The notes below the pieces were generated by a model. The model ran no database searches. It saw only the letters and a list, made by a program, of their open reading frames with translations, and was not told the DNA's origin. Made by a program: the position numbers and the translations under genes. This document shows, in pieces, positions 15,784-28,431 of a stretch of DNA of 64,000 nucleotides. Source of the DNA: Escherichia coli (lineage in GTDB: Bacteria; Pseudomonadota; Gammaproteobacteria; Enterobacterales; Enterobacteriaceae); the NCBI RefSeq assembly GCF_009931435.1, contig NZ_CP043414.1; one strand, written 5' to 3'. The stretch's first letter is position 1. Each line of letters starts with the position of its first letter.

Positions 15784-16020
15784 ATGTTTAAAAAACCTGT
15801 TTTATTTGCAACACTATTATCTGGCGTTATGGCATTTTCCACCAATGCAGATGATAAAATAATTCTGAAACATATCAGCGTCTCGTCAGTATCAGCATCA
15901 CCGACAGTTCTGGAGGATGCCATTGCTGATATAGCCAGAAAATATAATGCTTCATCCTGGAAAGTCACATCGATGCGAATTGATAATAATTCAACCGCAA
16001 CAGCAGTATTGTATAAATAA
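15784..16020 (+). CDS. rclB: DUF1471 periplasmic protein RclB
   Basis: Track ORF 15739..16020; start at MFKKPVLFATLLSGVMAFSTNA (signal peptide), 78 aa. Confidence 0.8.
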   Translation: MFKKPVLFATLLSGVMAFSTNADDKIILKHISVSSVSASPTVLEDAIADIARKYNASSWKVTSMRIDNNSTATAVLYK

Positions 16021-16031
16021 GGATGTTCACA

Positions 16032-16625
16032 ATGGAAAAATACCTGCACCTGTTAAGTCGGGGAGATAAAATTGGCCTGACATTGATTCGTCTGAGTATT
16101 GCGATTGTTTTTATGTGGATTGGGTTATTAAAGTTTGTCCCTTACGAGGCAGACAGCATTACACCATTCGTCGCAAACAGTCCACTAATGTCGTTCTTTT
16201 ATGAACACCCGGAAGACTATAAACAGTATCTGACTCACGAAGGCGAATACAAACCAGAAGCAAGGGCATGGCAATCGGCCAATAATACCTATGGTTTTTC
16301 CAACGGTCTTGGCGTCGTGGAGGTGATTATTGCTCTGCTGGTTTTGGCTAATCCTGTCAATCGCTGGTTAGGTTTATTGGGAGGGCTGATGGCATTTACC
16401 ACACCGTTGGTAACACTCTCATTTTTAATCACCACCCCGGAGGCATGGGTACCCGCATTGGGTGACGCTCATCATGGTTTCCCTTATTTATCTGGTGCTG
16501 GTCGCCTGGTATTGAAAGATACTCTGATGCTGGCAGGTGCTGTCATGATAATGGCAGATTCGGCGCGGGATATTCTTAAACAACGCAGTAATGAATCCAG
16601 TTCAACGTTAAAAACTGAATATTGA
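16032..16625 (+). CDS. rclC: inner-membrane protein RclC
   Basis: Track ORF 16023..16625; start at MEKYLHLLS gives 197 aa; several hydrophobic segments. Confidence 0.85.
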   Translation: MEKYLHLLSRGDKIGLTLIRLSIAIVFMWIGLLKFVPYEADSITPFVANSPLMSFFYEHPEDYKQYLTHEGEYKPEARAWQSANNTYGFSNGLGVVEVIIALLVLANPVNRWLGLLGGLMAFTTPLVTLSFLITTPEAWVPALGDAHHGFPYLSGAGRLVLKDTLMLAGAVMIMADSARDILKQRSNESSSTLKTEY

Positions 16626-16658
16626 TAATCCGAACACTGTCTGTTGTTCACTTTTTCA

Positions 16659-16784: not shown

Positions 16785-17669
16785 TCAATCATGTATTTTT
16801 ACAGCAAGACAACCACGAACAAACTCAGGATTAAAATGTTTTACCGATTCCCCAACATAACCCAAATCAAGCGAACTAATTTGCGCCATTTCTTTCTCTG
16901 TCAGTGAGAAATCCCAGATAGCAAAATTTTCTTCGATACGCTGTTGATGTGTCGATTTCGGAATAACGACCACTCCCCGTTGAATATTCCAACGCAGAAT
17001 GACCTGAGAAATCGATTTTTGATGGGCATCTGCAATATTCTGAAGCAGACTATTTTCAAAGGTTTTATGTCTTCCACCGCCTAACGGAGCCCATGCTTCA
17101 GGCTGCACGTTATAATACTTCATGGTTGCCAGCGCCTCTGGTTGGGCAAAATAGGGATGCAACTCGACCTGGTTGACCATCGGTTTAACTCTTACCGTCT
17201 CACAAAAGTTCGCCAGAACATGAGGGTAGAAATTGGAAACCCCAATCGCTTTTAATTTTCCCTCTTCATAGGCATCTTCGAGTGCACGCCACGCACTAAA
17301 ATAATCGCGCATGGCCTGGTGTAATAAATAGAGATCGAAGTATTCCAGTCCCGATTTTTTTAATGATGCTTCAATACCTGCTGCTGCAATATCCTGATTC
17401 AACATATCCTGCACCCACAATTTAGACGTTATAAATAACTCTTCTCGGGTACATAAACCTTCAGATATGGCTTCACGAACGGCTTCACCGACGGCATCTT
17501 CATTACCGTATACCGCTGCAGTGTCGATGAGTCGATAACCCGTGCGGATAGCATTCAACACTGACTGTTTGCACACGTCTTTATCGGTAACCTGAAAAAC
17601 ACCAAATCCCATCATCGGCATTTTCAGATTGTTACTTAATACGGAAAATTCCACTGTCAGTCCCTCCAT
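16785..17669 (-). CDS. aldo-keto reductase (2,5-diketogluconate reductase-like)
   Basis: 294-aa ORF with AKR motifs (MPMMGFGVFQ, LIDTAAVYGNE, IGVSNF, IPKS); a GTG at 17654 with a GGAGGGA RBS may be the true start. Confidence 0.85.
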   Translation of the reverse strand: MEGLTVEFSVLSNNLKMPMMGFGVFQVTDKDVCKQSVLNAIRTGYRLIDTAAVYGNEDAVGEAVREAISEGLCTREELFITSKLWVQDMLNQDIAAAGIEASLKKSGLEYFDLYLLHQAMRDYFSAWRALEDAYEEGKLKAIGVSNFYPHVLANFCETVRVKPMVNQVELHPYFAQPEALATMKYYNVQPEAWAPLGGGRHKTFENSLLQNIADAHQKSISQVILRWNIQRGVVVIPKSTHQQRIEENFAIWDFSLTEKEMAQISSLDLGYVGESVKHFNPEFVRGCLAVKIHD

Positions 17670-17869
17670 TAGGTATGAACAATGAGTCTACGTTAAAACG
17701 TAACCTCAAATTAGTATGTGGATTTTGATATCACTTATGCAAAAAATTCATTAATAATGTAGGACTGAAACCTCTCTATTTTCGGGGACAACGAAGCAGA
17801 CGCTACCAGTGCTTTTGCCTTCGCCCTTGCTGTTTTTGATACACTTAGGGCCCAGGGCATAACGAAAAT

Positions 17870-18760
17870 GTGCGATATGACAAAGAATTAACGGAGAATG
17901 TGATGATCAGGCAGAAGATTCTACAGCAGCTCCTGGAGTGGATTGAGTGCAATCTTGAGCACCCTATTTCAATCGAAGATATCGCACAGAAATCTGGCTA
18001 CAGCAGACGCAACATCCAGCTTCTGTTCCGAAATTTCATGCATGTGCCTTTGGGAGAATACATTCGCAAACGAAGGCTTTGTCGCGCCGCCATTCTTGTC
18101 CGGCTCACCGCGAAATCTATGCTTGATATTGCACTCTCTTTGCATTTTGATTCACAGCAGTCATTCAGCCGCGAATTTAAAAAGTTATTCGGCTGCTCTC
18201 CCCGTGAATACCGCCACCGTGATTATTGGGATCTCGCAAATATCTTCCCTTCTTTTTTAATACGTCAACAGCAAAAGACGGAGTGTAGATTAGTCAACTT
18301 TCCTGAGACGCCTATTTTTGGCAATTCATTTAAATATGATATTGAAGTGTCGAATAAATCACCGGATGAAGAAGTCAAACTGCGACGTCATCATTTAGCC
18401 AGATGTATGAAGAATTTTAAGACGGATATCTATTTCGTCTCCACGTTCGAACCGTCAACAAAATCGGTCGATTTGCTCACAGTTGAAACTTTTGCCGGTA
18501 CGGTATGCAAACAAACCGATTCAGAGATGTCGAAAGAGTGGACAATTAACCGAGGACTGTATGCCTCTTTCCGCTATGAAGGTGAGTGGGAGCACTACCC
18601 TGAATGGGCGCGAAACCTCTATCTGATGGAATTACCTGCCAGGGGGTTAGCCAGAGTGAACGGCAGTGATATTGAGCGATTTTATTACAATGAAGATTTC
18701 GTAGAAAAGGATAGCAATGATGTTGTTTGCGAAATATTTATCCCTGTTCGTCCGGTTTAG
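17870..18760 (+). CDS. AraC-family regulator with GyrI-like effector domain (ykgA-like)
   Basis: 296-aa ORF with N-terminal AraC HTH (SIEDIAQKSGYSRRNIQLLF); probable start at ATG 17903 (MIRQKILQQLL) after a GGAGA RBS. Confidence 0.8.
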   Translation: MRYDKELTENVMIRQKILQQLLEWIECNLEHPISIEDIAQKSGYSRRNIQLLFRNFMHVPLGEYIRKRRLCRAAILVRLTAKSMLDIALSLHFDSQQSFSREFKKLFGCSPREYRHRDYWDLANIFPSFLIRQQQKTECRLVNFPETPIFGNSFKYDIEVSNKSPDEEVKLRRHHLARCMKNFKTDIYFVSTFEPSTKSVDLLTVETFAGTVCKQTDSEMSKEWTINRGLYASFRYEGEWEHYPEWARNLYLMELPARGLARVNGSDIERFYYNEDFVEKDSNDVVCEIFIPVRPV

Positions 18761-18814
18761 TTATCGCTATGTCTAAATGAATTTATAACAAGACTACTGT
18801 CAGGCAATTCAATA

Positions 18815-18847
18815 AATAATGGCGTTGAAGATGTCAACGCCATTATT
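18815..18847. terminator. palindromic bidirectional terminator between convergent genes
   Basis: AATAATGGCGTTGA-AGATG-TCAACGCCATTATT, a perfect 14-bp inverted repeat. Confidence 0.5.
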
Positions 18848-18880
18848 GTTTATTAGAATGTTACTTTCATACTCTTAATA

Positions 18881-21800
18881 TTATTTCATCGCCTCCTCGC
18901 CCGTTGCCGTATTGGCATCCACCGCGGTAATGGTCACCGTCACTGGCTTCATTTCGTACCCGCCATAGGTCAGGGCGTTAAATGTGAACGTATAGACACC
19001 AGGCTTGCTGGTACTAAATGTACGCGTGATTTTTCCGCTCACGAAATGGTCATTTTTCGACGGCAGGAACTGATAATCCTTCTCCGTCACCCCTTCCGGC
19101 GTCTGAATGTCGACCCACATATTCCCGCCAACGGGGTTATTTGCCGACATCAGGGTCACCTCCAGCTTCGCAGTCGATTTCCCATCCGCCACCAGCGAAG
19201 GCACATTAGATGATGCGGTGAGCTGCGCGTTTTTATCATCCGCGACGAATTTAGCTTCGGCGGTTTTCGTTGATACCTGACCGTTGTTCTGACTCACTTG
19301 CGCCGTGAGTGTATATGTCGCCGCAACAGTCGTGGTGGCGGTGAAAATAGCCTGCCCTTGCTCATTCGTTGTCGCAGTGCCATTCGGTTCCAGGTTTAAC
19401 GAAGCCGGGCTGGCGGTCAGCGTCACTTCGCTATCTTTCACCAAATTCTTATTGGCATCAGTCACCGTAACTTTATACGTTTGTTTGGCTTTGCCGTCCG
19501 CCAGTGCATAGTTGCCAATCACCTCAATACTGGAGACGGTTGCGGTAGCCTTATCGGCTACAAACGTTATAGTCTGCGTATTCGAAGGCTGGCTATTCCC
19601 TGCCGATGCCGTGATCTCATACGTTCCGGCAGTCACTGAAACCACCTGCAACTCTGCTTTCCCCTCATCGTTGGCTTTCACCCAGACATTATCGCCAGTA
19701 AGCGGCTTGACACCCCGGGGCAGATTAAATGTCACCAGAGTTCCTGGAACAGGGTTACCGTTTTTATCCTCAACGGTCGCCGTCAGCGTAAAGGCATCTT
19801 TGCCGTTTGCCACTTTTTGAACGGCGGTGTCTACCTGCAGGTTTGCCTGACCGGTGCTGGCATCCGCGTTGAATTTCACCGTGACCGTCTTCTGAGAGTT
19901 TTTCACCGCGGCCGCGATTTCAAGTTCCCCTGCAACGGTTGATATCAACTCAATATCCGCTTTACCTGCCGCATTGGTTGTTACTGTATTCCCCGTCTTG
20001 CTAGTCACACCCTGCGGTAAAGTCAGCGTAACTTCTTGCCCCTGCAACGGGTTACCATAGCTGTCCACGACGGTCAGGGTTACCTGGTTAGCAGACTGTC
20101 CATTTGCCAGTTGGTTATTCACCTTCACCGCCATATCACTGATCACTGCCCGGGAAGCGTCGCCTGCAACATTCAGCACCAATGGCTGAGCAACGGCATT
20201 TTGGCCGTTCACGCGTGGCATGACAGACAACTGACCTGCAGCCGATCCCAGCGTTAAGGTCGCCACGTAGACCCCATTACCTTTCTCTGTCCAGTTACCT
20301 GCTGAAGGACGCTCACTCCCCGTGCTGGCGGCACCGCTAAACACGGGTGCATCGAGTTTCAGGTTACTAACAGGGTTGCCATACGCATCCTTCACGGTGA
20401 AGGTAAGTTCCGTCGTCGTTTTAACCGTTGGAGTCTTATTGTCCGCAACAAGCGTAGAGTTCGCTGATGACATCTCCCCGGCGATGACCGTCAACTGCGC
20501 GGCTTCGGTGGCTGCTGGCTGGCCGTTGAAGAGCGGCATGACACGAAGTTCGCCCGTCTTTCCGCCTGTGGTCAACGTAGCAACATAGGAACCGTCACCT
20601 TTTTCGGTCCAACTGGAAATAGTCGCCCCTTCAGAGGCGGTCCCCGTCAAACTTGCCGACAACGAAAGACCACTGATAGCGTTGCCATGCGCATCTTTCG
20701 CCACCAGCGTCACGGTTGTGCTTTCGCCTGCTTTTACGCGATCTGCGGCTACAGACACTGTCGACTGGCCTGAAGATAACGCATCAGCCACCACGGTTAC
20801 TTTTGCCGCGTTTGCTGCCGCATCCTGTCCATTTAGCTTCGGCATAACTTCTAATTCACCCGCCGTAGAGCCGAGAGTAATCTGCGCAGTCCACGTCCCA
20901 TCACCATTATTTGTCCAGCCAGATGCCGTAGAACCAGCAGCTGCTGCGCCCGATAATGACGGTGCATCCGGATTGAGGCCTGTTACAGGGTTGTCATTGG
21001 CATCTTTTGCCGTCCAGATTGCCGTAAGCGTACCGCCGACCACCGGTTTATCAGGATTCAGGGTGATGGACGAGTGTGCTGCATCAAGCGGCCCGGCAAC
21101 GAACTTCAGCGTTTGTTGTAATGTGCCCAGCTGATACTGCTCGCTGAAGGCACGCACAACAACGTTTCCGGCACGGGTCGAAGAAACCGTGGCGCTGTAA
21201 ACCCCTGGTTTTATTTCCGAAATGGCACCAACGGTTACACCATTAGTGTCTTGCGGAACAAGTCGCAGGCGGCTGGCTTCTCCCGTCACCGGATTACCCT
21301 CGGAGTCCACCGCTGTCAGTGTCAGCGTGTAGGCTTGCTGACCATCAGCAACCACGTCACCTGACGGCTCGTTAGCGCTCAGGGTGGAGTTTGCCACATC
21401 CATCATCGTGGCCCGCAGTTCTGCAGTGACGGTTTTGCTCATGCCATCAACGCTAACAGTAATCGTTGCCTCACCTGACTGCGTTCCGGTCGTAAAGACA
21501 GACTGGTACACCCCTGCTTCAGTTTCGGTGAACTCACCCAGTGTGGGTTTTGCCTGTGATTTAGTGGCCTTCAGGGTACGAGTCACAATATTTCCAGCCG
21601 GTTTGAAGGATAGTTCAGTCTTGATCTGATCTTTCATGCCCTTGACTGGCTGGCCCTCTGCGTCGCGCAGAGACAGCACCAGCGGCTTTTGCTCATTACC
21701 GTTAGCAAGCATTTGAATACGGCTCTGACCGTCAAGCGTTAACGCCGTACGATCGGCGCTCATACCAGCTCCGCTAATAACCACTTCTGTCTGCACACGT

Positions 21801-23134
21801 TTCGAGGCATTGCCTTTGTTATCGTAGGCAACTGCTGAAATCGCATAATAATTGTCTTTGCCTGGACGGTAAGCCGGGAGCGTTACTTGCCACTGACTAC
21901 CCTGACCGGTAATTTTGCCACCTTCAGCCAGTAATGACGGCGCTTCCCACTGCACATTTTTCAGTCCGTGAGTTGCTTTGCTGACCACAAGCCCCAGGGA
22001 AACCGTCTGACCGCCCTTGCCTTCAATACGCTCAGGCAGAGCAATACGGATCACTTCAGATTTGCGGTACTCAAGAACGATGTTGTTATTACGCTCAACC
22101 AGGTCATAGCGGCTGCCTGCCAGCATTCGACGCTCGCGAATGCTGTCTGTATCGAGTTGTTTTTGCAGAGGTTCGCCAATTCGGTAGTTAACTTCCAGGC
22201 CAAAGCGAGTGTCATTCTCACCACTCTTGCCCTGCTTATGCCCGGCGCTCAGTGTCAGAAGAGGCACTGGTGTATAGGTTACCTCGGCAGAAATAGCATG
22301 CGGGTCTTTCTGGCGTTTATCTTTACCAAACAGCCCGACTTCATCGCCATAATACTGCTCATACATCAGGCTTGCGCCAAGCTGCGGCCAGGCAGGTAAA
22401 TAGCCCTCAGCACGAATATCCCAGCCATTCGCCGGGCGTTCCTGATAATCCTCAACATCCGGCGATTTTTTCCAGCCAGAAGCCCGGATATAACCATTGG
22501 CGCTCAGTTTCAAATAATCACGCCAGTATTCCGCACCAACACCAATGCGGGTATGACTACGGGATAAATCATGATCGATAAAAGTATTCACCCCCGCCAT
22601 CCAGTCATTTCCTGAAAAATGACGCCAGCCAAAACCAATATTTGACTGAGTACGATCGTCGGTACGATGTATTGCCCCCTGAGTGAACAACATATTTGTC
22701 GGCGTGTCATAAATCGGATAAAGCATTTCCAGCGAAGAATCCTTCAGCGAGAAATCTTTATCGACATTCAGTTTGACGCGCGCTGTACCATATTTCCCGA
22801 GCCACTCCTGTATTTCCTGGTTAGCTTTAGCGGTGGCCATTCCGGTAATAAAATTACGTGTCGCATCGCTATCTGGCTGACTGCTTAAAAATGTCCCGGC
22901 ATTCGCGGCAAGCGACGCGACATTTTTCTCCACGTTATTATCAGCAGTTACCGTAGTATTTTCCATGCTCAATCGTGGCTGAACCGCATGCTGCGCATGT
23001 GCCGCCATTACTGGGGTAAAAGTGACTGCGAGTGGGAAAAGAACCTGAACAGAGATATTTGCCCACGCCACGCAGCGGGCCAGAACTGAATAACGAAATC
23101 GTGGTTGTTTATGACCTGTTTTATAACGTGACAT
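18881..23134 (-). CDS. fdeC: intimin/invasin-family adhesin FdeC (EaeH), full length
   Basis: 1417-aa ORF with signal peptide, N-terminal beta-barrel-like region and long Thr/Val/Ala-rich Ig-like repeat region; position matches eaeH. Confidence 0.9.
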   Translation of the reverse strand: MSRYKTGHKQPRFRYSVLARCVAWANISVQVLFPLAVTFTPVMAAHAQHAVQPRLSMENTTVTADNNVEKNVASLAANAGTFLSSQPDSDATRNFITGMATAKANQEIQEWLGKYGTARVKLNVDKDFSLKDSSLEMLYPIYDTPTNMLFTQGAIHRTDDRTQSNIGFGWRHFSGNDWMAGVNTFIDHDLSRSHTRIGVGAEYWRDYLKLSANGYIRASGWKKSPDVEDYQERPANGWDIRAEGYLPAWPQLGASLMYEQYYGDEVGLFGKDKRQKDPHAISAEVTYTPVPLLTLSAGHKQGKSGENDTRFGLEVNYRIGEPLQKQLDTDSIRERRMLAGSRYDLVERNNNIVLEYRKSEVIRIALPERIEGKGGQTVSLGLVVSKATHGLKNVQWEAPSLLAEGGKITGQGSQWQVTLPAYRPGKDNYYAISAVAYDNKGNASKRVQTEVVISGAGMSADRTALTLDGQSRIQMLANGNEQKPLVLSLRDAEGQPVKGMKDQIKTELSFKPAGNIVTRTLKATKSQAKPTLGEFTETEAGVYQSVFTTGTQSGEATITVSVDGMSKTVTAELRATMMDVANSTLSANEPSGDVVADGQQAYTLTLTAVDSEGNPVTGEASRLRLVPQDTNGVTVGAISEIKPGVYSATVSSTRAGNVVVRAFSEQYQLGTLQQTLKFVAGPLDAAHSSITLNPDKPVVGGTLTAIWTAKDANDNPVTGLNPDAPSLSGAAAAGSTASGWTNNGDGTWTAQITLGSTAGELEVMPKLNGQDAAANAAKVTVVADALSSGQSTVSVAADRVKAGESTTVTLVAKDAHGNAISGLSLSASLTGTASEGATISSWTEKGDGSYVATLTTGGKTGELRVMPLFNGQPAATEAAQLTVIAGEMSSANSTLVADNKTPTVKTTTELTFTVKDAYGNPVSNLKLDAPVFSGAASTGSERPSAGNWTEKGNGVYVATLTLGSAAGQLSVMPRVNGQNAVAQPLVLNVAGDASRAVISDMAVKVNNQLANGQSANQVTLTVVDSYGNPLQGQEVTLTLPQGVTSKTGNTVTTNAAGKADIELISTVAGELEIAAAVKNSQKTVTVKFNADASTGQANLQVDTAVQKVANGKDAFTLTATVEDKNGNPVPGTLVTFNLPRGVKPLTGDNVWVKANDEGKAELQVVSVTAGTYEITASAGNSQPSNTQTITFVADKATATVSSIEVIGNYALADGKAKQTYKVTVTDANKNLVKDSEVTLTASPASLNLEPNGTATTNEQGQAIFTATTTVAATYTLTAQVSQNNGQVSTKTAEAKFVADDKNAQLTASSNVPSLVADGKSTAKLEVTLMSANNPVGGNMWVDIQTPEGVTEKDYQFLPSKNDHFVSGKITRTFSTSKPGVYTFTFNALTYGGYEMKPVTVTITAVDANTATGEEAMK

Positions 23135-23684
23135 TGAGATAATTTCCTGATGAACGAATTAACGAACATAGGCAGACACAAATAATGGTGTCTGCTTGTC
23201 AGAAAAACCGGGGATTTCCCGGTTTCCTTTTCCGCAGAAAAGGAAATACCTTTATGTAAGAAAGTACACCGCCACCTAATATATCCAGTGCCTGTAGCCA
23301 CTCATCAGGTGGTTGGGCGCGGGATTATATTTTTATTTATGGGTGAGAATTTAGCTTTTTGTGCAAACCATTAAATAGATACCTAAGTTATATTTCTTAC
23401 TCTGCGGACAGTGAATAATTCATTATTCAGAGTGAATAATAATGACCTACCTTTAATTAGCAACTATCGGAAATACGTCGAAGTAGGTATATACGCCAGG
23501 ATAAACCGATATATTTTTTATGGATATTCATTTTCCTTCATCAGACTGTGAATTGCAGGGATATCGAACTTGCACGACTCATCGCAACACTCAAACAGAT
23601 TTATGAATTTCGTTCATAACCCCTGACAAATCCTGCCGTCTAATCGCGTGACTCCCTTTACGTTATGCTTCTCATGAACGATAA

Positions 23685-24275
<591 letters not shown>

Positions 24276-24467
24276 GCGATTATGCATCTACCTATTTACG
24301 TCGGTCACTCAGTCAGAGTCTTGCCCATATTCAATGAGGTTCAACACCGCAGCCAATGAAAAGTAGGCCATGCGGGGATTAATAGCATTACTCATTAATC
24401 AATCGCTCTTTTCATTTACGTGCTCTTTATGTAACATATTGCTTTTATTGATCTTCCTGGAGTTTGC

Positions 24468-24824
24468 ATGAATAAGAATCTCATCCTCGCATTTGCATTA
24501 TTTTCCTTACCTGTATTTGCAGAAGAAGATCTGGGGCCAGGCAAATATGTTTGTGACATTAGGATTTCCAGCCTGGATACCGCTACTCAAATTCTGTCAA
24601 AATCCGCAACAGTTCTCGATAATGGAAACAATTTCATCGTTCAAATGCCAAATGGAGATCAATTGTACTCTCCAGATCTGGAAAATGTTGATGATGGTAT
24701 AAAACAAAAAGCAACAATAGGTGGAGTGACATTTATTCGTCGTCCAACTTTTAACGATCGCTTCATCGTGGAAGATGGAAATACAGGATTCTTCTATAAG
24801 ATGCGAAACTGCGAGAAGAAATAA
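24468..24824 (+). CDS. hypothetical secreted protein (118 aa, two Cys)
   Basis: N-terminal signal peptide MNKNLILAFALFSLPVFA; no family recognised. Confidence 0.55.
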   Translation: MNKNLILAFALFSLPVFAEEDLGPGKYVCDIRISSLDTATQILSKSATVLDNGNNFIVQMPNGDQLYSPDLENVDDGIKQKATIGGVTFIRRPTFNDRFIVEDGNTGFFYKMRNCEKK

Positions 24825-25112
24825 AGGAAGTTTGATAGCGATATCCTCCTGATTTTCAGGCTTTGTACCTGTTCAAGACTTACAACTACAAGCCGCTACG
24901 TGTTAACGCCTCCCAAAATAACCACCGTTAACCGTAGCGGTCATAGATACTATTATTTTAGCCACATTACTGGTGATAATGATAATTGATATTATGGCCG
25001 TATAGAAAATAAGCATTAATTATCAGAAAGTTTATTATGTAAACGCGTCCTAATGATTACGTTATTCCTCTTACCGATATTCGCCCAGAGCAACCATCAA
25101 TTACACATATCA

Positions 25113-26039
25113 TCAATTTTCGAGTTTTACTCTTTTCTCCACCATAAAATCAATAAAAGCACGAACTTTAGAGGGCATTCTCACCCGTGATGAAACATAA
25201 ATATAAAATCCAGGAAATGAAACAGCCCAATCCTCAAGAATCGGCTGTAACTTGCCCGCATTGATATGTTCAGCGATTGCAAAATCCAGATGTTGAATGA
25301 TACCCGTTCCATTCAGCGCCATTCGTATCATGCTTTCGTCATCATTAGAAATATACTTACCTGAAACCTCTATTTCGAACTCTTCATTACCCCCCACAAC
25401 ATTAGAAAACTCCCATGCAGAGAGTGCACCGCTACTTTTATGCCGCAACCGAAGGCAATTATGGTTACTCAGTTCCTGAGGCGTTTCAGGAATACCGTGT
25501 TCTTTTAAATAATCTGGCGATGCCACAGTAACCAGTTTAATAAGCGGAGAAACAGGAACGGCAGTCATATGCTCATCCAGTCCTTGCTCAAGACGTATGC
25601 CCACATCACAGCCGTCCGCAATAATGTTAGATAAACCGTCATCCATAATGAGTTCTATCTTTGTTTTGGGGTAACGAGTAAGAAACTCGCCAATATGAGG
25701 CTCAACAAGCATCCGTGCTGCAACACGGGAGGAATTTATTCTCAACAGGCCTGTAGGTTCAAGTTGGGTATCACCAACATCTTTCAAAGCATCATCAATT
25801 TGCCCCAAAGCCGACACCAGCACTTCATACAGACGCTGTCCTTCCTCAGTAAGCGACATATTGCGGGTCGTACGGTATATCAGCTTGGTGTTAAGACGTT
25901 CCTCAAGAGATTTTAAATTCTGGGACAATGCGGCCCGCGTAATACCCATTTCAGAAGCGGCTCTGGAAAAACTGCCGGCACGAACAATCAGCGCAAACCA
26001 GGCAAGAGAAGGCAAAATTGAAGGCTCTATTTTCATCAT
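25113..26039 (-). CDS. LysR-family transcriptional regulator
   Basis: LysR HTH (GSFSRAASEMGITRAALSQNLKSLEERL); probable start at MMKIEPS; divergent from the hydrolase gene. Confidence 0.85.
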   Translation of the reverse strand: MMKIEPSILPSLAWFALIVRAGSFSRAASEMGITRAALSQNLKSLEERLNTKLIYRTTRNMSLTEEGQRLYEVLVSALGQIDDALKDVGDTQLEPTGLLRINSSRVAARMLVEPHIGEFLTRYPKTKIELIMDDGLSNIIADGCDVGIRLEQGLDEHMTAVPVSPLIKLVTVASPDYLKEHGIPETPQELSNHNCLRLRHKSSGALSAWEFSNVVGGNEEFEIEVSGKYISNDDESMIRMALNGTGIIQHLDFAIAEHINAGKLQPILEDWAVSFPGFYIYVSSRVRMPSKVRAFIDFMVEKRVKLEN

Positions 26040-26195
26040 TGTAAACCTTAACTTAACACTGTGATAGATATTAGACCATTGATGATAACCAATACAAGTC
26101 ATACTATTACGCCGTTCTCGATATGAACACAAATGCCAGTTGCGGATAATAGAAATGATATTTAAATCTGTTTAGGCAAATCCCTGGAGCTTGAA

Positions 26196-27116
26196 ATGAA
26201 AACGGTTTCGATAAAACACACTTACTGGGATATAGCTGCTGATATCTATTTCCCTGACGATTTTAATAGTGAAAAAAAGTATCCTGCCATTATCAGTGCC
26301 CATCCAATTGGAAGCTGCAAAGAACAGACATCGGGTAGTGTGTATGGTGCCGCCCTGGCAAAAGCTGGCTTTATCGTCATTGCTTTTGATGCCAGTTTTC
26401 AGGGAAGCAGCGGTGGAGAACCGCGTTATCTGGAAGATCCAACAATGCGAGTAAAAGACTTCAGCATTGTCGTTGATTACCTTACCACCTTACCTTACGT
26501 TGATGCCGGGCGTATTGGTGTACTGGGTATTTGTGGTGGAGGTGGATATGCCATTAATGCCGCAATGACAGAACGTCGGATTAAAGCCATTGGTACTGTC
26601 ACGGGTGCTAACTACGGGCGTCTTATGCGTGAGGGATTTACAGCGTTTAATCCTATCGGAGCACTCGAAGCAATGGCGCAACAAAGAACAGACGAAGCTA
26701 ACGGCGCAAAACTTCGCGTAGATGATTTGCTCCCTTCTTCTCCGGAAGCAGCTCTTGAAGCGGGATTAACAGAAATAGACCTTTTTGAAGCAACAGAATA
26801 TTATCGTTCGCCACGAGGCTGTGCGCCTAATGGGGTAAATCGTTCGCTATTTTCACATCAGACTGTTGCCGTGGGCTGGGATGCTTTTCATCTTGCAGAA
26901 GTCCTGTTAACTCAACCACTAATGGTTGTAGTGGGCGATAGAGTGGGCGCTTTTGGTGCCTATCGTGACGGCTGCGAAATTATTGGTCGTGCAGCCTCAA
27001 AACATAAAGAGTTGGTCGTGGTTGAAGGTTATTCACATTACGACCTGTATGATAAGCCAGAACCTGTGAAACAGGCGCTCGATAAATTAATTCCTTTTTA
27101 CAAAACACATTTGTAA
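26196..27116 (+). CDS. alpha/beta-fold hydrolase, no signal peptide
   Basis: 306-aa ORF with nucleophile-elbow-like LGICGGGGYA; paralogous to the ORF at 45817..46953. Confidence 0.8.
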   Translation: MKTVSIKHTYWDIAADIYFPDDFNSEKKYPAIISAHPIGSCKEQTSGSVYGAALAKAGFIVIAFDASFQGSSGGEPRYLEDPTMRVKDFSIVVDYLTTLPYVDAGRIGVLGICGGGGYAINAAMTERRIKAIGTVTGANYGRLMREGFTAFNPIGALEAMAQQRTDEANGAKLRVDDLLPSSPEAALEAGLTEIDLFEATEYYRSPRGCAPNGVNRSLFSHQTVAVGWDAFHLAEVLLTQPLMVVVGDRVGAFGAYRDGCEIIGRAASKHKELVVVEGYSHYDLYDKPEPVKQALDKLIPFYKTHL

Positions 27117-27288
27117 TAACCTTGCAGGGAGATTCATTATCTCCCTGAGATTTATCCTTTATTGACTACACGACAATAATAAAATTACTCAAAAAGAATT
27201 CTATTAAAGGAAAAAAGCATCAAAAAGTAGCAACTCAACTTATTAAGATTATACGCATTAAAATCAGATAAACATTTGAGGTATTGTT

Positions 27289-28431
27289 ATGATAAATAAA
27301 CACCCATCATTGTTTTCTCCTTTTATGCTGACAGAAAAAATAAAGCTACGTAATCGTATCGTTATGGCCCCTATGACGACCTGGTCAGCTAATCCTGATG
27401 GAACCATCTCTGAGCAAGAACTCGAATTTTATAAACGTCGCTCACAAAATGTTGGTTTAGTAATAACAGGATGCACCTATGTCACGCCAAGCGGCATTGG
27501 GTTTACTCATGAATTTGCCGCATATGACGACCGTTTCATTAACAGCCTTGAAAAGTTAGCTGCTGCAGCCAAAAGTGGCGGTGCTCCGGCTATTTTGCAG
27601 ATTTTCCACGCCGGTAATAAAGCCATCCCGGAGCTTGTGCCAAATTACGATGTTATTAGTGCCAGCGCATCAAGCGTAAAATCTGGTGACTTTATGAAGA
27701 GAGTGGTACAAAGCAGGGAAATGACTGAAAACGAAATTCAGGAAACCATTAGAGCATTCGGAGATGTCACAAAAAGGGCGATTAAAGCAGGTTTTGATGG
27801 CGTTGAACTTCATGGTGCGCACGGATTCCTTCTGCAGAATTTCTTCTCCCCTCTATTTAACCAGCGTAATGACCGATGGGGAGGAGATCTTGAAGGACGT
27901 ATGCGCTTCCCGCTGGCCGTATTACAGGAAGTAAAAAATGTAGTCTATGAATATGCGAAAAAGCCCTTTGCCATCGGTTACAGAATATCTCCTGAAGAAT
28001 CTGTAACAGGGGGGCTGCGGATAGAGGATACTTATAAACTCCTTGATCGGCTCATTTCATCCGGTATTTCGTATATACATACCTCGCTGGTCAGTATTAA
28101 CGATAGCTACCCTGTTGAGTCGCCAAATGGCCCCCGAACTATTGAATTGATTTTAAATCATATTGCAGGCAGAGTGCCGGTAATCGCCGCAGGTAAAATA
28201 CGCACACCTTCTCAGGCTCAAGAAGCAATTTCCGCTGGCCTGCCACTTGTTGCGATCGGTAAAGGGCTGGTGATAAATCCAGAATGGGTGACTTTAGCTG
28301 AATCAGGTAGAAGTCATGAAATTCAAACAGCCCTTAATCCACAACGCGTTCCTGAATTAACCATTCCGGATAAACTATGGGATCAAATTCAGGCATCGAA
28401 AGGAACTGGCTGGTTTCCGTTAATGGATTAA
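27289..28431 (+). CDS. NADH:flavin oxidoreductase (Old Yellow Enzyme family)
   Basis: 380-aa ORF; N-terminal LRNRIVMAPMTT and HGAHGFLLQNFFSP motifs typical of OYE/NemA-like enzymes. Confidence 0.85.
   Translation: MINKHPSLFSPFMLTEKIKLRNRIVMAPMTTWSANPDGTISEQELEFYKRRSQNVGLVITGCTYVTPSGIGFTHEFAAYDDRFINSLEKLAAAAKSGGAPAILQIFHAGNKAIPELVPNYDVISASASSVKSGDFMKRVVQSREMTENEIQETIRAFGDVTKRAIKAGFDGVELHGAHGFLLQNFFSPLFNQRNDRWGGDLEGRMRFPLAVLQEVKNVVYEYAKKPFAIGYRISPEESVTGGLRIEDTYKLLDRLISSGISYIHTSLVSINDSYPVESPNGPRTIELILNHIAGRVPVIAAGKIRTPSQAQEAISAGLPLVAIGKGLVINPEWVTLAESGRSHEIQTALNPQRVPELTIPDKLWDQIQASKGTGWFPLMD

Follow-up and report, generated by a model that had tools for sequence, protein, structure and literature searches.

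An intact chromosomal fdeC/eaeH adhesin gene in Escherichia coli with divergent distal modules and a conserved hairpin-rich leader

Introduction

FdeC, also named EaeH, is an inverse autotransporter (type Ve) adhesin of Escherichia coli, and close FdeC alleles have been described as promoting colonisation and biofilm formation and as binding collagens I, III, V, and VI as well as epithelial cells (PMC3324786, PMC6714894, PMC11143625). Identity among strains has been given as >91% (Nesta et al. 2012, PMC3324786). FdeC is described as undetectable in routine culture, with induction by host-cell contact or by temperatures of 39°C or above (PMC3324786, PMC11143625), and repression by H-NS is likewise reported in PMC11143625 (citing Easton 2014) and through reference 25 of PMC6714894. 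Intimin (Eae) and Yersinia invasin have the type Ve topology, homologous barrels, and Ig-like passengers including a D00-like module in common with FdeC. EaeH of ETEC H10407 and the K-12 eaeH pseudogene (b0297) are orthologous to the gene analysed here; of these two, K-12 is the one whose sequence was compared.

Here, we describe the fdeC locus in a 64,000-nucleotide stretch of E. coli DNA (contig NZ_CP043414.1; hereafter, the window). It is an ordinary full-length copy of fdeC, whose surface adhesin has been studied extensively in E. coli.

Results

Architecture of the encoded protein

A single ATG-initiated reading frame occupies positions 18881–23134 on the minus strand, a strand that the original prediction had left unnamed, and we assigned the following features to it:

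18881..23134, minus strand: fdeC (eaeH) coding sequence, ATG start, 1417 codons plus stop
22994..23134, minus strand: codons 1–47, predicted long Sec-type signal peptide (hydropathy by eye)
22085..22909, minus strand: codons 76–350, inverse-autotransporter beta-barrel, IAT_beta (Pfam and barrel structures)
21770..22063, minus strand: codons 358–455, D00-like first extracellular Ig module (intimin D00 match)
18884..21769, minus strand: codons 456–1417, nine tandem Ig-like modules, Invasin_D3/Big_1 (Pfam and module scan)

The predicted signal peptide shows an n-, h-, and c-region pattern when the hydropathy profile is judged by eye, with basic residues at 5–20, a hydrophobic core at about 21–44, and AHA|Q at 45–48. 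Eleven Pfam families match the protein. The barrel is covered almost end to end by PF11924 (residues 76–350; E = 3e-109; profile positions 3–279 of 279) and matches the barrel structures of invasin (4e1t, 7e-83) and intimin (4e1s, 9e-71). Residues 358–455 match intimin D00 (6tqd) at 8e-13 and had no Pfam match in the module-by-module scan. In the whole-protein Pfam search the passenger contains Invasin_D3 in nine stretches and Big_1 in five; its Ig-like modules, nine in addition to the D00-like one, are ~100 residues each and 20–26% identical to the first module. The passenger thus lies C-terminal to the barrel, in the inverted order of type Ve proteins, and is built of tandem Ig-like modules, so that domain annotation bears out the intimin/invasin-type architecture that had been proposed from the DNA alone.

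The long repeat region that had also been proposed is present at the protein level, as divergent Ig-like modules, and not as DNA tandem repeats: Tandem Repeats Finder returned no rows for fdeC at a score of 30 or more. Self-BLASTP of the passenger gave nothing useful. Window FdeC carries nine to ten Ig modules compared to four in intimin and invasin, and unlike these proteins it has neither a LysM periplasmic domain nor a C-type lectin-like tip (no Pfam match in the whole protein at E ≤ 0.01 or in fragments at E ≤ 1), and its gene lies outside the LEE. The final module is Ig-like and not a lectin (Invasin_D3 at 1.2e-7).

Identity of the gene

Near-identity to FdeC, synteny, and RefSeq naming all agree, no observation speaks against the assignment, and we consider it practically certain that the reading frame is the intact chromosomal fdeC/eaeH of E. 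coli, encoding a type Ve adhesin. Residues 595–1008 are identical to the crystallised FdeC fragment of strain IHE3034 (PDB 4E9L) at 395 of 414 positions (95.4%; 1e-245). For the full-length comparison with FdeC of ExPEC IHE3034 (ECOK1_0290) the allele of ExPEC S88 was used as a stand-in, with 92.2% identity over the full length; by either measure the window protein exceeds 90% identity to characterised FdeC. The IHE3034 and S88 proteins share its locus and architecture, without a lectin tip in either, and at 1417 residues it is one residue longer than that of S88.

The exact window protein has an NCBI entry, FdeC [Escherichia], which belongs to a 90% cluster with 17,949 members. In the closest genomes the RefSeq fdeC coding sequences are also 4254 nt long with the start codon identically placed, and same-length RefSeq neighbours at the equivalent locus are labelled "fdeC: inverse autotransporter adhesin FdeC". 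The reading frame is collinear with these intact RefSeq alleles, in agreement with the original prediction of an uninterrupted 1417-codon gene free of any IS element. Since NCBIfam has no FdeC-specific model (its best matches, IatC, Ilp, and intimin, all fall under their cut-offs), the name rests on near-identity and synteny and not on a curated HMM.

Identity to S88 FdeC is unevenly distributed: it is 93.6% in the signal peptide, 95–99% from the N-linker (residue 48) to D5, and 74–89% in modules D6–D9. By its sequence, the allele is a natural variant in which the barrel and proximal modules are near-identical to the reference and the four distal modules are divergent. Because D6–D9 diverge by 11–26% from the characterised ExPEC protein, its ligand specificity may differ, and the divergence of the distal modules also bears on antigen coverage.

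Genomic context and the K-12 lesion

fdeC occupies its canonical chromosomal position between a ykgA-like (AraC/GyrI-like) regulator gene and an aldo/keto reductase (AKR) gene, in the order rcl-ykgA-fdeC-AKR-ykgR-ykgMO-ecp, near rclABC and not in the LEE. It is flanked by:

18815..18847, no strand assigned: probable bidirectional intrinsic terminator with a perfect 14-bp stem and a 5-nt loop (inverted repeat and fold)
23321..23699, no strand assigned: AT-rich divergent intergenic region common to fdeC and the aldo/keto reductase gene (GC 0.36–0.43)

The hairpin begins 33 nt beyond the fdeC stop codon, in the gap that separates fdeC from the convergent ykgA-like gene, which ends at 18760. A 96-nt segment folds at −25.5 kcal/mol (z = −4.8), and together with the perfect inverted repeat this upholds the strong palindromic terminator of the original prediction; the hairpin is probably a bidirectional terminator common to both genes. 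The predicted AT-rich upstream region was likewise found, with a GC content of 0.36–0.43 at 23200–23650 vs. 0.50–0.57 within the gene, and it is plausible that 23321–23699 is an H-NS target.

In K-12, the order is eaeH pseudogene, IS3A, ykgA pseudogene. K-12 aligns to window positions 23685–22259 and 18507–17639, and 18508–22258 are missing; this loss of 3751 bp takes away the last 3378 nt of fdeC together with the terminator and the 3' end of ykgA. The first 876 nt of eaeH are retained, and this fragment and the leader match the window at 96.4%. Thus, whereas window fdeC is complete, K-12 eaeH was broken by IS3A and a deletion: the earlier description of the K-12 gene as IS-disrupted holds in that IS3A lies at the break, but not as a simple interruption, since the IS3 element accompanies a 3.75-kb deletion. 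Of 5426 complete E. coli genomes, ~84% carry no less than 80% of the fdeC locus as one piece.

A conserved leader upstream of fdeC

Upstream of the start codon we noted two further features:

23135..23320, minus strand: conserved hairpin-rich leader of 186 nt, directly upstream of the ATG (conservation and folds)
23324..23329, minus strand: perfect TATAAT hexamer, putative −10 element read from the sequence, invariant in 11 leaders

The hexamer stands at the upstream limit of the conserved zone. In a promoter scan, the number of matches equalled the shuffle expectation, and the one upstream candidate on the sense strand (23463–23436) was set aside, its −35 not being kept in other strains. Across Escherichia species the leader is conserved at least as well as the adjoining coding sequence. 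A scan of genome contigs with a back-translated N-terminal pattern, which misses alleles like that of S88 (MSRYKTDNKQ), found only two species. The leader contains perfect stems at 23223–23246, 23205–23225, and 23172–23195, a long stem at 23268–23312, and an AGGA Shine-Dalgarno sequence 10 nt ahead of the ATG. The records examined hold no annotated feature over 23135–23320, and an Rfam scan of 18600–24000 at E ≤ 1 gave no match. A dispersed (REP/MITE-like) repeat was rejected, the leader being single-copy per genome (median 1 place).

The predicted pairing partner of the AGGA Shine-Dalgarno sequence is a U-run in the leader (UUUUCUGA). This pairing appears with some assumed 5' ends only, the fold shifting with the 5' end; in 12.5% of shuffles the occlusion was as good or better, and only weak melting is predicted. 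In an alignment of the 11 leaders, which vary very little, 99.5% of the cells were paired and 0 pairs had changed on both sides, and shuffles equalled the observed covariation values.

The arrangement resembles fourU-type RNA thermometers (Salmonella agsA, Yersinia lcrF) in that a U-run faces the Shine-Dalgarno sequence of a gene reported to be heat-induced (PMC11143625). In contrast to these, the pairing in the fdeC leader depends on the 5' end, its predicted response to temperature is weak, and it has no Rfam match. That the leader acts in cis as a regulatory RNA within the 5' UTR of fdeC, either a thermosensor occluding the Shine-Dalgarno sequence or an attenuator, is a speculative reading that we regard as quite improbable; in the attenuator version, the terminator-like hairpin 23205–23225 followed by UUUUUCU could act. 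If the reading is true, the leader RNA would add, alongside H-NS, to the limitation of FdeC expression to 39°C or above. The strongly conserved structured leader may in part account for the tight control of FdeC by temperature that has long been noted.

Discussion

Because the IAT_beta barrel and Big domains are shared with other E. coli inverse autotransporters, and partial NCBIfam matches extend to the IatC, Ilp, intimin, and SinH models, we weighed whether the reading frame is instead intimin (eae) or another member of the group (YeeJ, IatA-D, or a SinH-like protein). The NCBIfam scores are far below the cut-offs (intimin_all, 383 bits vs. 1400; IatC, 640 vs. 2400), neither the LysM nor the Intimin_C lectin domain was found, the crystallised FdeC fragment is 95% identical, and the locus is not the LEE. 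Such an identity is vanishingly improbable, being refuted by the NCBIfam scores, the identity to 4E9L, and synteny. We found no support for a chance or mis-assembled reading frame, which 1417 codons, 11 Pfam families, and thousands of collinear orthologues refute outright.

It is a more serious possibility, though in our judgement an unlikely one, that fdeC is intact here and yet functionally silent, with H-NS and the structured leader preventing adhesin production in most conditions. The AT-rich upstream region, the silencing described in the literature, both by H-NS and at 37°C (PMC11143625; PMC6714894 ref 25; PMC3324786), and the hairpin-rich leader with its U-run predicted to be able to pair with the Shine-Dalgarno sequence are in keeping with silence. 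Against it, the 4.25-kb reading frame is conserved intact, the locus being in one piece in ~84% of complete genomes, which implies that a protein is made and selected for, and published work documents induction both on host contact and at temperatures of 39°C or above. Silence would moreover bear on the timing of expression and not on the identity of the gene. The original prediction held that the intact gene can express a surface adhesin; an intact reading frame is necessary, not sufficient, for this. The window allele need not be expressed, because H-NS is reported to silence fdeC, and FdeC has been reported to appear only on contact with the host or at temperatures of 39°C or above.

What is known of the family suggests the following route. 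The 47-residue signal peptide would take the FdeC precursor through Sec, residues 76–350 would insert in the outer membrane as a beta-barrel, aided by BAM/TAM, and the C-terminal passenger would then thread outward through the barrel. With its D00-like module and nine Ig-like modules, the passenger would form a long rod without a lectin tip. Expression would be conditional and not constitutive, the AT-rich promoter region reportedly being silenced by H-NS.

Unlike K-12, this strain keeps a complete, broadly conserved adhesin that is a vaccine candidate, and the value of the present assignment is for annotation only. The gene itself is carried by most E. coli strains.

fdeC in the window is a full-length inverse autotransporter adhesin gene

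The gene is a single ATG-initiated ORF of 1417 aa on the minus strand (18881..23134), without internal stops; the coordinates and length in the original prediction, which gave no strand, were exact. RefSeq fdeC CDSs from the closest complete genomes share both its length (4254 nt) and its start, and a Shine-Dalgarno AGGA can be read in the sequence 10 nt upstream of the ATG. The Pfam search gave the predicted inverse autotransporter barrel with Big domains: IAT_beta, the inverse autotransporter beta-domain, spans residues 76-350 (E = 3e-109, entire profile covered), while Invasin_D3 occurs in nine stretches and Big_1 in five. The N-terminus, where basic residues precede a hydrophobic core (about 21-44) and AHA|Q follows at 45-48, is consistent with a putative long Sec signal peptide. 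Residues 358-455 had no match in the Pfam scan and match the intimin D00 structure 6tqd (8e-13). The Ig-like modules that follow were mapped by scanning fragments cut by hand, and their borders are approximate (residues):

about 456-575, 576-681, 682-783: Ig-like modules 1-3
about 784-886, 887-991, 992-1091: Ig-like modules 4-6
about 1092-1193, 1194-1298, 1299-1417: Ig-like modules 7-9

The final module scored slightly below the Invasin_D3 cut-off (32.5 bits, E = 1.2e-7). Modules share 20-26% identity with the first, and no tandem repeats were found in fdeC DNA; the "long repeat region" predicted originally is thus real as Ig-like modules in the protein but not as a DNA-level tandem repeat. 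The top solved structure was 4E9L, the crystal fragment of FdeC region B (1e-245, residues 595-1008), to which 395/414 residues are identical by hand count from the alignment; the barrels of invasin (4e1t, 7e-83) and intimin (4e1s, 9e-71) came next. NCBIfam holds no model for FdeC; its IatC, Ilp, intimin and SinH models matched partially and far under their cut-offs, which excludes intimin proper. Neither LysM nor the Intimin_C lectin domain was found by Pfam in the whole protein or in fragments. Taken together, the domains, the identity to 4E9L and the locus bear out a full-length fdeC/eaeH adhesin, a gene that is already known, widely distributed and well characterised.

The locus is canonical and the distal modules vary between alleles

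The gene order ykgGFE, rclR, rclABC, aldo/keto reductase, AraC/GyrI-like regulator (ykgA), fdeC and, beyond it, aldo/keto reductase, onward to ykgR, ykgMO and ecpRABCDE, is that of the canonical fdeC locus. Megablast with window 18600-23500 matched the locus in 5121/5426 complete E. coli genomes, with at least 80% of the query in one place in 4574 (84%), and the annotation under the match reads "fdeC: inverse autotransporter adhesin FdeC". The annotation of O157:H7 PV15-279 marks its fdeC (NZ_AP018488.1 347503-351756) as a pseudogene containing an internal stop, so a match of at least 80% does not ensure an intact gene and 84% is an upper bound on intact copies. NCBI and UniRef already list an identical protein, FdeC [Escherichia] (15 contigs), within a cluster of 17,949 members at 90% identity.

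Nucleotide identity across fdeC was 98.3% at best and 90-95% in most genomes, whereas its flanks were mainly 95-99% identical, indicating that fdeC varies more than its surroundings. FdeC of the window is 92.2% identical overall to that of the ExPEC strain S88; by domain, the signal peptide stood at 93.6%, the stretch running from the N-linker (residue 48) to D5 at 95-99%, and D6, D7, D8 and D9 at only 89%, 74.5%, 84% and 79.5%. This fits earlier reports of >91% identity between strains (PMC3324786) and of FdeC variants (PMC11143625). Allele divergence centred on these four distal Ig modules (window 18884-20159, codons 992-1417), in which 74-89% of amino acids are identical to those of S88 and E2348/69, in a mosaic pattern: the differences from the window lie mainly in D5-D6 for strain E400634 and mainly in D5-D8 for 2020CK-00188. 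This points to the exposed tip as a site of recombination or diversifying selection. In E400634, which carries the nearest allele, the annotation shows neither rclB nor rclC in the interval from rclA to the aldo/keto reductase; both are present in the window (15785-16626 region) and in K-12.

The K-12 lesion is IS3 plus a deletion

In the MG1655 annotation, an eaeH pseudogene (314357-315244) is followed by IS3A (315229-316483) and a ykgA pseudogene. By BLASTN, K-12 matches window 23685-22259, that is, the leader and the first 876 nt of fdeC, and picks up again at 18507-17639. The intervening 3751 bp (18508-22258) are missing from K-12, a loss that takes in 3378 nt at the 3' end of fdeC together with the terminator and the final 253 nt of ykgA. 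The gene had been described as IS-disrupted in K-12; the IS3 is there, but the lesion is IS3 plus deletion, consistent with PMC3324786. The ykgA-like AraC/GyrI regulator (17639-18760) and adjoining aldo/keto reductase (16785-17669) are intact in the window, their K-12 counterparts being the pseudogene remnants ykgA and ykgQ; window 23686-28339 is also missing from K-12, where the ykgP remnant alone remains, so this region of K-12 has undergone several separate deletions.

A conserved structured leader precedes fdeC

Immediately before the ATG lie 186 nt (23135-23320) that are unusually structured (MFE -69.2 kcal/mol, z = -6.4). The features within this leader and at its edge are:

23223-23246, 23205-23225, 23172-23195, minus strand: three perfect hairpins
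23268-23312, minus strand: long stem
23329-23324, minus strand: perfect TATAAT hexamer, invariant in 11/11 leaders, bordering the conserved zone on its upstream side

The leader is single-copy and 95-99.5% identical across 5028 E. coli genomes, with no annotated feature over it in the records listed and no Rfam match. It is 95.2% identical to the window in E. whittamii and 96.8% in Escherichia sp. E1V33, which equals the conservation of barrel-coding DNA (about 95%) and clearly exceeds that of other intergenic DNA (87-91%). In 11 leaders, 99.5% of cells were paired; no pair had changed on both sides, and shuffles gave the same values as the real alignment. Variable columns were enriched at unpaired positions (10/62 vs 8/128 paired, Fisher p = 0.036), and all four pairs differing by one-sided changes keep their pairing as G.U/U.G wobbles when read on the sense strand, the same changes giving A.C mismatches on the antisense strand; one pair runs A-U / G.U / G-C. 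We conclude that the leader is a conserved and probably functional cis element. If the TATAAT is a -10 element, the 5' UTR would be about 183 nt and correspond to the conserved zone. A good -35 was not found, and this putative promoter may be activator-dependent or H-NS-occluded.

Thermometer and attenuator readings of the leader are hypotheses. Hairpin 23205-23225 is terminator-like and followed by UUUUUCU. In several folds this U-run pairs with the Shine-Dalgarno, varying with the assumed 5' end; 12.5% of shuffled sequences occluded the Shine-Dalgarno to an equal or greater degree, and predicted melting was weak. Among the top matches of a literature search, no paper tied fdeC/eaeH to RNA thermometers.

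Flanking signals and expression

The AT-rich upstream region was confirmed (GC 0.36-0.43 at 23200-23650 vs 0.50-0.57 inside fdeC), as was the strong palindromic terminator:

18815-18847: terminator hairpin, perfect 14-bp inverted repeat, 5-nt loop, 33 nt past the fdeC stop

The 96-nt sense RNA here folds at -25.5 kcal/mol (z = -4.8). Since the hairpin lies between the convergent fdeC and ykgA-like genes with U-rich tails both ways, it is plausibly a bidirectional terminator.

By analogy with its family, the FdeC precursor would be exported via Sec, its barrel assembled by BAM/TAM, and the Ig-module rod then threaded outward, C-terminal end leading. Close alleles bind epithelial cells and collagens I, III, V and VI (Kd ~1e-8 M), contribute to fitness in murine UTI and are expressed only on bacteria touching host cells (PMC3324786). 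According to passages in PMC6714894 and PMC11143625 citing Easton 2014, fdeC is repressed by H-NS, with FdeC expression seen only at ≥39 C (EHEC) or 42 C (APEC). Given this published control, the claim that the gene can express a surface adhesin holds under inducing conditions, not unconditionally.

Other parts of the window

In window 23700-24824, the divergent aldo/keto reductase gene codes for a shortened protein of 191 aa, its homology to full-length alleles stopping at 24261, and is followed by low-GC DNA with a 118-aa ORF that has no Pfam match. O157:H7 PV15-279 and 2020CK-00188 each have an AKR pseudogene, identical in length at 561 nt and annotated incomplete, and 2020CK-00188 shares with the window the hypothetical ORF after it. 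E400634 has a second AKR and a LysR gene, both absent from the window. Window 39001-64000, which holds paoC, pepD, proA and frsA, was matched over at least 80% in one place in only 608/5426 genomes; the best matches, at 96.0% identity, contain an ISEc20 insertion that is absent from the window.
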